Source: Candidatus Hodarchaeota archaeon
Lineage (GTDB): Archaea; Asgardarchaeota; Lokiarchaeia; Sigyniarchaeales; SOKP01
Direction: 5' to 3'
DNA: 12,725 bases
Assembly: GCA_048886685.1 (NCBI GenBank)
Contig: JBHLKM010000037.1
Location: forward strand, 1-12,725
The position numbers and the translations under genes were made by a program. Numbering within the stretch: the stretch's first letter is position 1; each line of letters starts with the position of its first letter. Shown here one piece after another: positions 80-11,141 of the stretch. The notes below the pieces were generated by a model. That model saw nothing but the letters and a program-made list of their open reading frames with translations, was not told where the DNA came from and ran no database searches.

Positions 80-147
80 AATTTTGTTTTATCTACTAAA
101 ATAATCCGTTTCCAAGTTTTTGAAGTATAATGCAAATTATAAAAATA

Positions 148-281
148 AAAAAAAGATATATAGAATGGAGGAAAATTGTTTAGATGTGGTCATTCGAGAA
201 GCCATTTGCCCCAAAAATTTCCTCCTTTTTCTATATTGTAATTTAGAGATTTCAACCCTCATTTGATATATCTCCTTTAAT
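148..281 (-). ncRNA. Conserved structured 3' element, copy 1 (multi-stem RNA with terminal U-tract; putative regulatory RNA or terminator)
   Basis: ~87% identical to 1104-1237. Long imperfect hairpin at 158-236 (AUAUAGAA/UUCUAUAU, GGAGGAAAUU/AAUUUUCCUCC, UUUGG/CUAAA, UGG/CCA). Possible closing stem AAAGGAGAU/AUCUUUUUU with G-U pairs on the - strand. Followed by a U-rich tract. Begins ~25 nt after the stop of 306..1019. Confidence 0.6.
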
Positions 282-305
282 TAGCTTTCTAATGATTTTC
301 TGTAT

Positions 306-1019
306 CTAATGGAAATTTATGTTAGTTATTAATGTTATCTCAAGCAAACCAAGGAAGTTATAATATGGATTAGGCCCTGTATAATCTGCACCTACTTTAA
401 CGATAAAGCTAATTACATGCATTTTTCCTGTGTCTCCCGCTTCCCAACCGTCGTATGAATTTAGAAACTCGCCTGTTGCATGGCCACACAAGAAAACTGA
501 TTCGAAGGTGCCAAGTTCCCAGACATAATAGTCCCATGGGCGATATATAATATTTCCATCCTCGTCATAGTCATCAGGTCCAAGTGTATCTAAGTCAATA
601 GTAAATTGTAACTCATATGTAAAGTCCATTACTCCTGTAAATATTGGTGTAGCCATTGGAATTGGAAGGACAAAATTTGTAATATAGAATGGAACATCTT
701 TTGCACGCATATGGACGGTAACTAGCAAAATATTATCTTTTAGTTCTCTTTCAATTACATATCCTTTAGGATTGTAGTCTAATGCGGAGGCCCAATGTGG
801 AATTGTTGGATCATCAAGAAAAGTCCATATAAGTAGACCATTATCATAATCTGGCATTGCTCCTAGGGAGTGTCGTACAACAGGAGCTAACCAATCCTCT
901 ATTGGTCTTATAATTGTTTTTCTTTTTCCGCTATCTGCTGCAGCTGCTGGGATGAAACTCAAAAGGACAGTTATTGCTATTACCACTAATACTAATCTTT
1001 TTATGTTCGATCTTTTCAT
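306..1019 (-). CDS. Secreted hypothetical protein, paralog A (237 aa, signal peptide, DxDxDG loop)
   Basis: Basic N-terminus, hydrophobic stretch and AAA cleavage motif (MKRSNIKRLVLVVIAITVLLSFIPAAAA). GAGTTGA RBS-like motif before ATG. Shares motifs with 1245..1898. Confidence 0.9.
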   Translation of the reverse strand: MKRSNIKRLVLVVIAITVLLSFIPAAAADSGKRKTIIRPIEDWLAPVVRHSLGAMPDYDNGLLIWTFLDDPTIPHWASALDYNPKGYVIERELKDNILLVTVHMRAKDVPFYITNFVLPIPMATPIFTGVMDFTYELQFTIDLDTLGPDDYDEDGNIIYRPWDYYVWELGTFESVFLCGHATGEFLNSYDGWEAGDTGKMHVISFIVKVGADYTGPNPYYNFLGLLEITLITNINFH

Positions 1020-1047
1020 TTTTATATCAACTCTAAATTTTGTTTTT
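1020..1047 (-). promoter_or_regulatory. Conserved 5' leader / RBS region of paralog A
   Basis: AAAAACAAAATTTAGAGTTGATATAAAA-ATG; 25/28 identical to 1899-1926. GAGTTGA resembles the archaeal SD GAGGTGA. Confidence 0.6.
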
Positions 1048-1103
1048 TCTTTTTTGTTTTTTCTTTAAATGATATCATGGCACCTGTTTATACAGTAAAA
1101 AAT

Positions 1104-1237
1104 AAAAAAAGATATATAGAATGGAGGAAAATTGGTCTAGGTGTGGTTAATCGAGAAGCCATTTATCTAAACACTTCTTCCTTTTTCTATATTTAAATTT
1201 AGAGATTTTAATCCTCATTTGATATTTCTCCTTTAAT
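1104..1237 (-). ncRNA. Conserved structured 3' element, copy 2
   Basis: ~87% identical to 148-281, with the first 31 nt identical. The hairpin is retained (AUAUAGAA/UUCUAUAU, AGGAAGA/UUUUCCU, GUUUAG/CUAGAC, UGG/CCA) plus the U-tract. Starts 7 nt after the stop of 1245..1898. Confidence 0.6.
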
Positions 1238-1244
1238 CTTAGTT

Positions 1245-1898
1245 TTAGCCTACTTGATAAACATTTAATATTTCATAAGGCCAGATCTCTTCGCCTTTTT
1301 GATTTACATACCAAGTTTGGAATAGAAATACTCCAGCTTCTTTATATGGAGTAAATCCGAAGTCCCCAGCATGTTCCGTGAATGTTCCAGAGGCAAAACC
1401 AATTACCATTCCTGATATCCATTCACTTATACCAAATTGGAAAGGTATCTCTTGATTAGGTCCAGGAAGGATAAATTTAAATATTGCATAAAAATCCATT
1501 CTAGTATTTTCAATAATATCCTCGGGCCATGGCCCTCCCCCGAAATAATCAAAAAATTCTTGTAATCGATAAACCGATCTAGGGCTATTTTTCCCAAAAA
1601 TGTAGACAGTGAGTTCAGCTCGTTTTTTATTCAATACCTCTTCACGTATATAGCCACCATATTCACCATCATCTGCAACGTCAAAATTAGGGCGTATTAT
1701 CCAACCTTCTGGGAGAAGATCCCAATTGGTAGTATATCCTAAAAGCACACGAGGATTATTTAAGGTCCAATCACTAAAAGGTCTATAAGTCACATAGCTT
1801 TTATAACCATACGCGTTTGGCATTGCTGGGAAACATAAAAAAAAGAGACCTACTACTAGAAGTCCATAGAATATTTTTACTTTTTTAGTTTTATTCAT
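1245..1898 (-). CDS. Secreted hypothetical protein, paralog B (217 aa, signal peptide)
   Basis: MNKTKKVKIFYGLLVVGLFFLCFPAMPNAYG signal peptide. Motifs RPFSDW, GYIREE, MDFY and GFASGTF match RPIEDW, GYVIER, MDFT and GHATGEF of paralog A in the same order. Confidence 0.9.
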   Translation of the reverse strand: MNKTKKVKIFYGLLVVGLFFLCFPAMPNAYGYKSYVTYRPFSDWTLNNPRVLLGYTTNWDLLPEGWIIRPNFDVADDGEYGGYIREEVLNKKRAELTVYIFGKNSPRSVYRLQEFFDYFGGGPWPEDIIENTRMDFYAIFKFILPGPNQEIPFQFGISEWISGMVIGFASGTFTEHAGDFGFTPYKEAGVFLFQTWYVNQKGEEIWPYEILNVYQVG

Positions 1899-2193: not shown

Positions 2194-2952
2194 TTGAATT
2201 CAGAAAAGGGTGTGGAAGATAAATTGAATGGAAAAAAAAATAATATTCATGAAGGGGAATGGGATAAATTAATAGCTAAACATAAATTACGATTCGACAT
2301 TTGGGCTATCCTTGAACTTTATACAGAATTAAATGTAACTCAAATTACTCATTATTTAGAACATAGTAAATCCACTATTGCTAGACATCTTAAGTCAATG
2401 GAACAAGATGGTCTTCTCGTATCTAGGATAGGAGAACAACCTGTAAAAGGAAGAATACCACCAAAGATCTATAGAATTAATCCAAAGTATAAAGAAGAGG
2501 ATATAGATATGGAAGAAAAGGATTTTTCAGAAGATCCTGAGAAACTTCACCAATTTTACAAAAGAGAGATCAATAACTATCGAAAGTTAAGTTATAATAT
2601 TACACAGCTACTTGATTATTTAGATCCGTTTTTAGATCTTCTTCAAGACCAGTTAGTAGATATTACAAAAGCGAAAAATACCTATGATGAATATTTGTCA
2701 TACATAGATGAGCCAGTTTTTTTATATTTTGATAAAAAACGGGCTCGAAAACTTATGGATTTACGTACAGAATATGTTTTCAAATTGCATAGACTCGCTA
2801 TGGAAGAAGAGTTAAATACTGAAGAGGCTTTTGTATATTTTGATATGTCTTTACCCCTTGCTGCGCTATTTGAATTAAAAAGGAAAATTAAGCGAGCTCG
2901 AATAGATGAGCAACTGATAGTTAAATTAGAAACCTTAATCAATAACGTTTAA
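2194..2952 (+). CDS. ArsR-like winged helix-turn-helix transcriptional regulator with helical C-terminal domain
   Basis: HKLRFDIWAILELYTELNVTQITHYLEHSKSTIARHLKSMEQDGLLVS...PKIYRIN matches the ArsR/HTH_20 pattern. TTG start is uncertain. Confidence 0.85.
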   Translation: MNSEKGVEDKLNGKKNNIHEGEWDKLIAKHKLRFDIWAILELYTELNVTQITHYLEHSKSTIARHLKSMEQDGLLVSRIGEQPVKGRIPPKIYRINPKYKEEDIDMEEKDFSEDPEKLHQFYKREINNYRKLSYNITQLLDYLDPFLDLLQDQLVDITKAKNTYDEYLSYIDEPVFLYFDKKRARKLMDLRTEYVFKLHRLAMEEELNTEEAFVYFDMSLPLAALFELKRKIKRARIDEQLIVKLETLINNV

Positions 2953-2980
2953 GGTTAATAATTTTATTAAATTCCGTATT

Positions 2981-3096
2981 GTTCTCGCTTTATATAAACT
3001 TTATATAGAGGAAGATTTAAATACTGAAGAAACTTTTGTTTATTTTGACATATCTCTACCTCTAGTTGCTCTATTTGATTAAAAGGAATAATTAAA
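2981..3096 (+). pseudogene. Truncated duplicate of the C-terminus of the 2194..2952 regulator
   Basis: VLALYKLYIEEDLNTEETFVYFDISLPLVALFD* aligns to VFKLHRLAMEEELNTEEAFVYFDMSLPLAALFEL (2776-2892). No start codon; a 1-nt loss (GAATTA to GATTA) creates a stop. Confidence 0.8.
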
Positions 3097-3151
3097 ACCG
3101 AAATGAAAATAATATTAAAAAGTTATTAAAAATTGCCACAGGCTCAAATTC

Positions 3152-4576
3152 ATGTTACATCCAATTACGAACGAGTTATCTCAAGCAAAAAGGTTAATGA
3201 ATGAGAGTAAATTTAAAGAAGCTATAGAAGTTATTAATAAGCTTGAGGATAAAAAAGATCTTACACTTCAAGATCAATTCGAAATCCACCATCTTAAGAG
3301 TTCTCTCCTTTCTGAAATTGGATATTTTAATGAAGCTCTTAAATATGTTGAATTAGCTCATAAAGAAAGTCAACAAATGAAAAGGGATCTTCAAATAATT
3401 AATGTCCTAATTTCCAAGAGTAGCCTTCTACTTAGATTAACTAGGCTAAACGAAGCACTAAGGACTATTATTAAAGCTGAACAAATACTAAAAAAGATCA
3501 ATCAAGTATCATCAAAAGAATACAAAGAGAAATATGCATCTTTAATTTTACTTAAAGGACACTATCATTGGAACATGGGTGATTTCAATCGTTCTCTAGA
3601 GTATGCTCATGAGGTTTTAGCTATTGCTAAAGAAATTAAAAATGATATACTTAAATTATCCGCAGCAAGGCTGTTTGCTTTTAATTATGGGCTTAAAGGT
3701 GAATATGGACGCAATCTCGAAAATACTAAACGTTATTTAGCACTTGCAAAGAAGGTAAATGATAAACAAGCGATAATTGGTGCACTTAATAGTTTGGGAA
3801 TTATGCTCACTGAAAAAAACGAGTTTAATCAAGCATTAGGTTATCTGAAGCAAGGATTATCAATATGTGATGAAATTAATAGTTTTAAAAAAGCCGCGGT
3901 TCTTAGCTCTCTTCTTGATTTATATCTGGAAATGAATAATCTTGATGAAGCACATCAATGCTTAGATCGAATAAAACAAATCAAAAATCAAGAAAATATT
4001 AAGTGGTATAATGATCTTTATCAGCTTGAAAAGGCAGGATTGTTGAAAAAGAAACCACAAGACATCAATCACCTTAAGGCAAAGGAAATATATAAACAAA
4101 TTGTTAATGAAGAGGATACATTTATTGAGTTCTATTACGTTTCCCTAATAAATCTGTGTGATTCATATTTAAAAGAATTACATAAAACAAATGATTTAAA
4201 AGTATTAGATGAGATTCAACCTTATATTAAACGATTAATGAATATCGCCAAAAGTCAAAACTCTTTCTTGTTACTTGCTGAAGGTTATTTATTTCAGGCA
4301 AAATTGAAACTAATAATCTTCGAATTTAGGGAAGCTGAAGATTTTTTAACTCAAGCATTAATTACTGCTGAAAGGTATGGTCAAGACCTGTTGGTTAAGC
4401 GAATAATAAATGAGCAGGGTGAATTATCAAAAAATTTTATCAAATGGAAAAAATTAAAAGATACAGGAGCAAATGTGTCAGATCGTATGGATTTAGCCCG
4501 CATAGATGAACAGATCGAACTTCTACTCCAAAAGCGTAAATATTTAAAGAGTATTAAAATATTTCATGAATCATGA
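3152..4576 (+). CDS. Tetratricopeptide-repeat (TPR) protein, 474 aa
   Basis: Repeated TPR-type helices (GYFNEALKYVELA, KGHYHWNMGDFNRSLEYAHEVLAIAKE, ALNSLGIMLTEKNEFNQALGYLKQGLSI). Confidence 0.9.
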   Translation: MLHPITNELSQAKRLMNESKFKEAIEVINKLEDKKDLTLQDQFEIHHLKSSLLSEIGYFNEALKYVELAHKESQQMKRDLQIINVLISKSSLLLRLTRLNEALRTIIKAEQILKKINQVSSKEYKEKYASLILLKGHYHWNMGDFNRSLEYAHEVLAIAKEIKNDILKLSAARLFAFNYGLKGEYGRNLENTKRYLALAKKVNDKQAIIGALNSLGIMLTEKNEFNQALGYLKQGLSICDEINSFKKAAVLSSLLDLYLEMNNLDEAHQCLDRIKQIKNQENIKWYNDLYQLEKAGLLKKKPQDINHLKAKEIYKQIVNEEDTFIEFYYVSLINLCDSYLKELHKTNDLKVLDEIQPYIKRLMNIAKSQNSFLLLAEGYLFQAKLKLIIFEFREAEDFLTQALITAERYGQDLLVKRIINEQGELSKNFIKWKKLKDTGANVSDRMDLARIDEQIELLLQKRKYLKSIKIFHES

Positions 4577-9808: not shown

Positions 9809-10018
9809 AAGAAATAACTAATTTTTTAATATTGATTTTATTTATTTTGGTTTTACAAATATAGGTGAATTCTACTTCAAAAAGCAAATATACAAAAATG
9901 TATTTAAATTTTACAAAATCTATTTTATTTTGTTTTTATATCTAATCAGAAGTTTAACTTTCACTTCAATTATATTGATAAATATTTCAAATTTAGTAAT
10001 ATATGGAGTTTATTGCAT

Positions 10019-10050
10019 ATAAAAAAGCATCAATATAAAAATTGAATATA
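10019..10050 (-). repeat. 32-nt direct repeat, copy 1 (TCAAT-N6-ATTGA hairpin plus U-tract on - strand; terminator-like)
   Basis: ATAAAAAAGCATCAATATAAAAATTGAATATA, 31/32 identical to 10763-10794. Confidence 0.75.
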
Positions 10051-10116
10051 TTAGATTTTAACCATAATTTAAAAGAAAATGAGATTCTTGGATCTATATT
10101 TTTTAAATAATTGAGC

Positions 10117-10653
10117 CTACCTTTTTTTAAAAAATCTTGTTTTTTCTAAGAGGACAAATTCTGCTAAAACAAGAGTAATAACAATAATGGCCAAATAAAA
10201 ACCATTTAGCAATATTAAATTAAAAGAGAACGATGTAATAGTAGTAGGTGGAATCTCGATTATTAATAATGTTAAAAAAGTAGAAAAAACACTCCCAAAC
10301 AACCCTATACTCATCAAGAATACACTAATTATATCCAAGTTTCTTCTTATTCTTGATAACTTTTGTTTTTTGAAATACCCGAAGTTAAGAAGAAATCCAA
10401 TGATAAATATTGTTATGAAGATAAAATAGACAACAAAATTATAACATATCTCATATCCTGAACCAACAATACGAGAGGGGAAAGAAATCACCCCAAAATG
10501 AAGGTTATGGATAAAAAATTCCGTAGGATTAGAAATAACTCCTGAAATTTCTACGCGTTCAAAACCTAAAAAAACACTCGCAATTCCAAAAATCAATATT
10601 ACGATTTTAAAGGTTATATTAAATACTTTTGATTCCATATGAATCACATCCAT
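10117..10653 (-). CDS. Hypothetical integral membrane protein (~4 TM)
   Basis: Four hydrophobic segments, basic loop and tail. True start may be ATG 10638 (MESK), preceded by GATGTGA. Confidence 0.8.
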   Translation of the reverse strand: MDVIHMESKVFNITFKIVILIFGIASVFLGFERVEISGVISNPTEFFIHNLHFGVISFPSRIVGSGYEICYNFVVYFIFITIFIIGFLLNFGYFKKQKLSRIRRNLDIISVFLMSIGLFGSVFSTFLTLLIIEIPPTTITSFSFNLILLNGFYLAIIVITLVLAEFVLLEKTRFFKKR

Positions 10654-10762
10654 AAATTTAGATTCTCTCCAAGCAGAAACTTAGTTATTCTTAAAGGATC
10701 CAATTTAATTTCAGTTTTATAATTAAATTACTTAAATATAATAATACTCAAACCTCTCTCAA

Positions 10763-10794
10763 ATAAAAAAGCATCAATAAAAAAATTGAATATA
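10763..10794 (-). repeat. 32-nt direct repeat, copy 2
   Basis: ATAAAAAAGCATCAATAAAAAAATTGAATATA, 31/32 identical to 10019-10050. Confidence 0.75.
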
Positions 10795-11141
10795 ATAAAA
10801 AATATTTGTTAACATACTTGTTTTTATAGAATATATCCTCTTACCTTATCGATTTGAATTCAATGTCAACACATAGTTACTCTTTTAATAGAATCGTTTG
10901 GGGGGATTTACTCATTATTCATAATGCAAAATTTTTCTCTATTATTCTTGCAGTTCGCTCATATTCAATAAAAAGAAGTCTCAGTTTTTCTTTCTTTGTC
11001 GTAGTAACGGTCGCCTAGGATCCCTCCACTTTCTATATGGATCATAGGAATTTAAATTTCTTTATTCTTAAAAAAGGTAAAAATTTAAAAAAAAGTTTTG
11101 TATGAATAATCCCTACAGGATCTAATTTCTACAAGAAAAAA

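Follow-up and report, generated by a model that had tools for sequence, protein, structure and literature searches.

What is the sequence that stands behind two neighbouring genes of a Lokiarchaeial genome, and what keeps it so much better conserved than the genes themselves? The window in which this question arises is the whole of a 12.7-kb contig (C37; 12,725 nt) from a genome of 4.4 Mb with 30% G+C. The homologues of the proteins encoded on this contig carry the labels Lokiarchaeota or Promethearchaeota.

Two copies of the element in the window

Copy A occupies 148..281 and copy B 1104..1237, both on the minus strand. Global alignment of the minus strands showed 118 identical columns among 135, with 15 mismatches and 2 gap columns, in agreement with the ~17 differences counted in an earlier note made from the letters of the window. 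The borders of the similarity are sharp: identity is 53% in the 60 nt past the T-run and 46% on the side of the stop codon, with unrelated AT-rich DNA at ~49% as the yardstick. Copy A forms the 3' flank of the ORF at 306..1019 and begins 24 nt past its stop codon. Copy B begins 7 nt past the stop codon of the ORF at 1245..1898 and lies between this ORF and the ORF at 306..1019. Both ORFs are on the minus strand and encode paralogues of one family, termed X, namely P0001 (306..1019, 237 aa) and P0002 (1245..1898, 217 aa), each with a signal peptide and no Pfam match. The coding sequences are 53% identical at the DNA level, and the proteins share 22% identity over 114 aa (E = 1e-4). The gaps of 24 and 7 nt bear out the earlier placement of the copies just past the stops of secreted-protein genes, and the low identity of the products agrees with the note as well.

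The members of family X are exported, uncharacterised proteins of about 230 aa without a Pfam match. The AlphaFold model is all-beta and confident (pLDDT 82). A Foldseek search of the PDB with this fold gave zero matches at E<=0.001, and the protein atlas was uninformative. Its detected range covers only about half of the genus. The window holds other repeats as well: a 38-nt intergenic direct repeat (92% identical, 10016-10053 and 10760-10797) flanks the ORF at 10117..10653, and a 105-nt direct repeat (76% identical, 2775-2879 and 2980-3084) covers the end of the HTH-protein ORF at 2194..2952 and the stretch just beyond.

The whole element measures ~95-135 bases and has a U-run at its end. 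The best conserved core, of ~94 nt, lies on the mRNA-sense (minus) strand and consists of an imperfect hairpin of ~80 nt followed by T7-10. From 5' to 3', the core shows three nested stems around an apical region of ~26 nt in which CUUCUCGA is nearly invariant, then four bases, and then U7-10. The hairpin core of copy A (159..235, minus strand) contains the stems UAUAGAA/UUCUAUA, GGAGGAA/UUCCUCC and GUUUAG/CUAAAC-type, with UGGCUUCUCGAAUGACCA in the conserved apical region, and the core of copy B (1115..1191, minus strand) has the same architecture. The covariance model matches copy A at 146-238 (97.7 bits) and copy B at 1102-1194 (101.4 bits). Read from the sequence, a U8 tract (A8 on the plus strand) stands 4 nt past the hairpin of copy A at 147..154, minus strand, and is the presumed termination signal; copy B has a U7 tract at 1104..1110, minus strand.

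A 5' domain of ~42 nt (GGAGA..GAGGGUUGAAAUCUCUAAAUU) precedes the core in part of the element family only. In the window it lies at 236..281 in copy A (GGAGA..AUAUCAA..GAGGGUUGAAAUCUCUAAAUU) and at 1192..1237 in copy B, both on the minus strand. The copy A domain holds the reverse complement of a motif in the family X leader: immediately 5' of the core, its bases are reverse-complementary to the leader motif AAUUUAGAG, and UUGAUAU/AUAUCAA adds to this match. In each family X gene the leader (AAAUUUAGAG UUGAUAU), which lies around the ribosome-binding site, is reverse-complementary to two blocks of the 5' domain, the positions being 1020-1040 for the leader and 1195-1225 and 240-270 for the 5' domains. 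A second subfamily in relatives has another matching pair of leader and 3' flank, of 14-15 nt. Inverted matches of at least 9 nt were found in 19 of 81 genes, compared with 9 of 81 in the direct-repeat control, a weak enrichment. The leader and 5'-domain motifs are AT-rich and partly self-complementary.

A palindrome, TGATCATCA-N(4-6)-TGATGAT, was seen 25-45 nt before the start codon of 11 of the 87 element-linked genes (e.g. L075, L085, L126 and L135), some of them genes of family X, of cluster-5 and of beta-helix proteins. It may be an operator. As the sign of a regulon, this ATCATCA..TGATGAT promoter palindrome was rejected on that small share of the genes and on its lack of specificity in the present genome (G000).

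Distribution, gene context and inheritance

Seven copies were found in this genome by nhmmer. Genome surveys with a covariance model built on the core (R1) showed ~115 copies in 38 of the 52 genomes of the genus, with 1-9 copies per genome. A second genus of the same family has matches in 16 of its 31 genomes and a third genus has one match, and 19 genomes of the order's three other families gave zero matches with this model.

The context of every copy was surveyed over ~2.6 kb on either side. In 93 of the 114 copies of the genus, an ORF on the same strand terminates no more than 150 nt before the core, mostly at a distance of 20-80 nt, and the stop codon is therefore located just before the full element. 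The stop codons of these ORFs are TAA (57), TAG (18) and TGA (18). Family X accounts for 61 of the 93 upstream ORFs; among the others are NosD/beta-helix proteins, beta-lactamase-like proteins and several families that Pfam does not match. A crude rule based on hydrophobicity assigned a signal- or TM-like N-terminus to 79 of the 93 ORFs, compared with 12% of background ORFs. The element follows each of the four family X genes of this genome and about 42 of the 47 that were detected across the genus. In the two clear exceptions, the X gene is the first of a pair with a beta-lactamase-like gene, and the element stands after the second gene. In genomes without family X the element is mostly absent. 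In the second genus, 20 of the 24 copies follow a same-strand gene for an exported protein, which in 17 cases belongs to family X. Gene-element-gene-element arrays exist, and the genes that come after the element are of diverse kinds and of either orientation (TPR proteins, SBP_bac_5, Rab-like GTPase, suhB-like). The link to family X among the upstream ORFs and in all X genes of this genome supports the idea, raised in the earlier note, of a dispersed element tied to a gene family.

Family X genes often adjoin winged-helix and TPR proteins, both at 2194-4576 of the window and in relatives, and a TPR protein of ~650 aa lies downstream of 24 copies. These neighbours may be regulators of the locus. 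Many contigs of this and related assemblies have an end no more than a few hundred bases away from the element (the window at its position 1, L066, L067, L079 and L091, and further L097, L128, L208 and L209), and short public contigs with relatives of P0001 stop 48-90 nt past the stop codon, that is, with the break inside the repeat. The element seems to break short-read assemblies in the manner of a dispersed repeat.

Between orthologous loci, identity is 80-91% in the core, compared with 64-91% at the four-fold sites of the upstream gene and 57-71% in the next 100 nt. The element evolves more slowly than the four-fold sites and is under purifying selection. Copies behind unrelated proteins, or behind proteins less than 30% identical, have a mean identity of 71%. 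Orthologous copies are 82% identical, and copies within one genome (72%) are no closer than non-orthologous copies of different genomes (71%). Because of this high identity of orthologues and the lack of closeness within genomes, the copies are old; they predate the species, were inherited with their loci and are constrained. Neither concerted evolution nor genome-specific bursts were seen in the comparison of copy identities within and between genomes. Adjacent copies, namely the two in the window and two on contig C4, share private variants, which points to local duplication.

An orphan copy without a same-strand upstream gene lies between convergent suhB-like and divergent mpg-like genes and is kept in five genomes of two genera (L059/L158, L082/L163, L146/L162, L189 and L192). 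In three other genomes the suhB-like and mpg-like genes are adjacent and the orphan copy is absent. The 5' arm has decayed in two of the five genomes, with the loop, the 3' arm, the T-run and the following ATTTAAA almost invariant. This points to a function that needs neither an upstream gene nor, at the suhB/mpg locus, the full hairpin. The orphan copy may be an other-strand terminator for suhB, a promoter for mpg or a source of its own transcript. A divergent copy elsewhere in the present genome (C11:8747-8847; orthologues G059:C161 and G047:C24) has its loop oriented opposite to the family X gene, and its arms and flanking A/T runs fit both orientations. Recombination between the arms may have inverted the loop of this copy.

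A selfish origin of the element is unlikely. According to this explanation, a MITE-like or terminator-like repeat (cf. the pneumococcal SPRITE, and REP) once transposed into 3' flanks and is now immobile and a partly domesticated terminator. The element resembles such a repeat in being a long, nearly end-to-end inverted repeat with many copies, whose arms reach almost both ends of the core, and in its presence behind several unrelated gene families. Orphan copies occur, one locus shows a presence/absence polymorphism, and breaks at or near the element, as in the contigs of many relatives and in the window's own, are typical of dispersed repeats. However, flanking direct repeats are found at 13% vs. 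10% and at 33% vs. 36% when compared with permuted partners, and neither target-site duplications in this control nor precise filled and empty sites at the suhB/mpg locus were found. The sole filled/empty pair, at that locus (G005 vs. G008), is an indel of ~150 nt whose limits do not coincide with the element ends. The 1-9 copies per genome show no excess of within-genome similarity, and bursts are not seen (same-genome 0.72 vs. 0.71). Neither a longer element with the same ends, as searched by nhmmer, nor an autonomous partner was found in this genome. The orientation of the element follows the upstream gene, and the element co-occurs with one gene family. The earlier note had named random contexts with target-site duplications as the mark of a MITE; since the contexts are non-random and such duplications were not found, this outcome did not occur.

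Folding of the element and the strand that matters

The 80-nt cores of copies A and B have folding energies of -20.8 and -15.0 kcal/mol and rank in the strongest 0.6% and 3.8% of the sequences preceding a T-run in this genome. The generic 80 nt before a T-run fold with -8.4 +/- 3.7 kcal/mol, compared with -15 to -21 kcal/mol for the element, and only 42% of the genes of this genome have T6 or longer within 150 nt of the stop codon. Over 104 copies, the mean z is -3.4 relative to dinucleotide shuffles. The long hairpin with its terminal U-run is thus real. In line with what had been proposed, the element is more structured than the usual 3' ends of the genome and better kept than these.

The evidence for selection on the pairing itself is mixed. 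Standard pairs fill 88-94% of the pair cells, double changes number 71 compared with 23 in column shuffles, and in one divergent copy (G056:C46) an internal loop is swapped for a fully complementary stretch. However, a control in which the partners were slid by +1 yields as many double changes as the true pairing, and the helices contain about as many G-U (83) as A-C (95) oppositions. In 97 of the 104 copies, the antisense strand has a more stable fold than the sense strand (-23.5 vs. -18.5 kcal/mol) because conserved A.C oppositions turn into G.U pairs in it; these 97 copies share one consensus feature and therefore do not count as independent evidence. The closing stem AAAGGAGA/UCUUUUUU is a mere purine run opposite the U-run and is therefore beyond the reach of covariation. 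The sequence of the apical loop is conserved to the same degree as the stems. Across the family, covariation is weak to modest, and the support for a selected RNA structure on the sense strand is weak, moderate at most. Of the structural claim made earlier, the part that stands is a hairpin stronger than the generic one. The pairing-preserving substitutions invoked for it turned out to be few once the whole element family was examined, and the modest covariation, the slid control, the wobble and mismatch counts and the stronger antisense fold weigh against a selected structure on the sense strand.

Which strand matters is decided by the context. The T-run columns are 80-99% conserved over 105 copies and belong to the best conserved parts of the element, and the T-run always has the same strand as the coding sequence upstream of it. 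On the antisense strand, the U5 tracts sit in less conserved columns.

These observations bear on an independent small-RNA gene on one strand, forming the whole element or contained in it, which is improbable. In one version, an antisense hairpin RNA of ~45 nt would start ~25 nt downstream of an A-run/TATATAG box and end at the U5 tracts of the descending arm; in the other, a small RNA with an anti-Shine-Dalgarno-like UUCCUCC would derive from the 3' UTR. TATA-like boxes can be read on either strand at ~25 nt from the inner stem, the antisense strand is the better folder, the apical loop is as conserved as the stems, and two genera retain the orphan copy, which has no upstream gene on its strand. 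The contrast between the less conserved antisense U5 columns and the highly conserved sense T-run speaks against the antisense version, and the orientation that follows the upstream gene in 93 of the 114 copies argues against an independent gene. As targets of the conserved loop, the genome offers only chance complementary matches of up to 13 nt, and small ORFs are not conserved on either strand. On the antisense strand, an ORF beginning with ATGGAGG is missing from 50 of the 104 copies and ranges from 3 to 45 codons; a 9-codon ORF in the loop occurs in only 27 copies; and on the sense strand the AUG position varies (ATG, TTG, GTG, ACG, TCG). A small protein gene was rejected on these grounds.

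The best hit in Rfam 15 is mir-268 with 24.2 bits, compared with a gathering threshold of 47, a few others are weaker, and all of these hits, mir-268 included, have E>0.1, in line with the earlier impression that the element belongs to no known RNA family. ARAGORN found neither tRNA nor tmRNA. Rfam and ARAGORN gave no support for a tRNA-like structure, a SECIS element, a bulge-helix-bulge motif, a K-turn, or a C/D or H/ACA RNA, and on inspection none of these fits. A bacterial intrinsic terminator consists of a short G+C-rich stem, a loop of 3-8 nt and a T-run. A consensus scan of 1-2400 of the window found none, and of these parts the element has only the T-run, its stem being long, AT-rich and interrupted and its apical region measuring ~26 nt. 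An archaeal or eukaryote-like SECIS element is a hairpin in the 3' UTR of a gene with an in-frame UGA, and two helices enclose its GAA_A or AUGA..GA core. However, no in-frame stop interrupts the upstream ORFs, and inspection showed that the GA dinucleotides of the loop are just 2 nt apart, therefore with no second helix between them. A bulge-helix-bulge motif has a 4-bp helix flanked by two 3-nt bulges; the inner helices of the consensus fold are, by inspection, of 6-7 bp with asymmetric internal loops between them.

The attC sites of integrons have an R'' box (RYYYAAC) first and an R' box (GTTRRRY) last, in terminal positions, and occur in arrays of unrelated cassettes with an integrase nearby. 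In the element the box order is reversed, with GTTTAG first and CTAAAC last, the boxes are internal, and the upstream genes are mostly of one family. A DNA-level site, whether a palindromic binding or recombination site (attC-like) or a terminator/promoter spacer that insulates neighbours, is very improbable: the two strands have symmetric wobble and mismatch types, sequence conservation outweighs covariation, gene-element-gene-element arrays exist and the antisense side could give mpg a promoter at the suhB/mpg locus, but the conserved apical region of 26 nt is not palindromic, the GTTTAG...CTAAAC boxes are read as inner rather than terminal stems in the reverse of the attC order, the arrays hold one gene family instead of unrelated cassettes, and the strictly one-sided T-run suits transcription better.

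A candidate 3'-end module and its known counterparts

The best explanation, to which we give about an even chance, is that the element is a conserved terminator and 3'-end hairpin module that was duplicated together with a gene family. It would be the 3'-terminal module of the transcription units of family X and of a few other exported proteins, with family X patchily distributed within a single Lokiarchaeial family. Transcription would proceed from the upstream gene across the imperfect hairpin of ~80 nt and end in the U7-10 tract, helped by aCPSF1, which would place the hairpin at the very 3' terminus of the mRNA. In archaea, tracts of 4-7 U signal termination, and a Lokiarchaeal aCPSF1 showed similar U-tract behaviour (PMC8716108). 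An archaeal U-tract terminator has at least four U downstream of the gene, at the 3' end of the transcript; in the element a tract is present and conserved at the place where the transcript would end. Archaeal termination works without a hairpin (PMC8716108), and a function of the hairpin is therefore something that we infer. Most likely, the hairpin would slow 3'-to-5' decay and/or be a common binding platform, so that the mRNAs bearing the element would share one 3'-end behaviour. The module would have been duplicated with its gene, sometimes copied locally behind neighbouring genes, and since passed on vertically under purifying selection. The anatomy, position, orientation, distribution and conservation on which this explanation builds are directly observed, and from them we infer termination at the U-tract, stabilisation and factor binding.

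A more specific possibility, which we regard as doubtful, is a shared 3'-UTR tag that marks the mRNAs of exported proteins for a dedicated trans-acting factor. This factor would control their stability, translation or location, possibly reinforced by the pairing of leader and 3' flank. If this were true, the tag would define a post-transcriptional regulon like those of eukaryotic 3' UTRs.

As a terminator and 3'-end hairpin module or otherwise, the element is well delimited, occurs in two genera, with ~115 copies in one of them, and is tied, in relatives of the eukaryotic ancestor, to mRNAs for exported proteins. It is a substrate for testing mRNA 3'-end formation, protection and recognition by dedicated factors in Asgard archaea and a candidate for a new RNA family model, and its presence would explain why the assemblies of these genomes often break here. 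Archaeal gene 3' ends are thought to require a U-tract only, and to our knowledge conserved 3'-UTR elements common to a whole gene family have hardly been described in archaea. Literature searches turned up no account of an element of this kind from Asgard archaea.

Among known systems, the element comes near to the archaeal U-tract/aCPSF1-FttA terminators (PMC8716108), with which it shares a U7-10 tract shortly past the stop codon, on the coding strand; this tract is its best conserved flank. The known terminators have no required hairpin and no sequence common between genes (PMC8716108), whereas the element has an 80-nt hairpin with a conserved loop before the tract that is common to ~115 loci. 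The bacterial terminator-like and extragenic palindromic repeats (SPRITE, REP/BIME, ERIC, Correia) are likewise dispersed intergenic palindromes in 3' flanks that fold in the transcript, and hairpins of this type can terminate or stabilise a transcript (PMC10969869, PMC3184786). These repeats have tens to hundreds of copies, stand behind any gene and bear marks of mobility. In contrast, the element is archaeal, has 1-9 copies per genome, follows one family of exported proteins and is inherited vertically, and duplications or bursts were not found.

Two further systems resemble the element in part. In the icaR mRNA of Staphylococcus aureus the 3' UTR pairs with the 5' UTR. The likeness concerns the 5' domain only, in which the stretch 5' of the hairpin (CUCUAAAUU, with AUAUCAA in the window) is the reverse complement of the leader; unlike the icaR pairing, that of the element is putative, with a weak enrichment of the leader matches and with motifs that are AT-rich and partly self-complementary. 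The stem-loop at the 3' end of animal histone mRNAs measures 26 nt, is bound by SLBP and marks the cleavage site. As a functional analogy only, and with no homology, it is like the element in that a gene family has one conserved 3'-terminal hairpin that is much better kept than a generic 3' end, whereas the 3' end of the element would be set by the U-tract.
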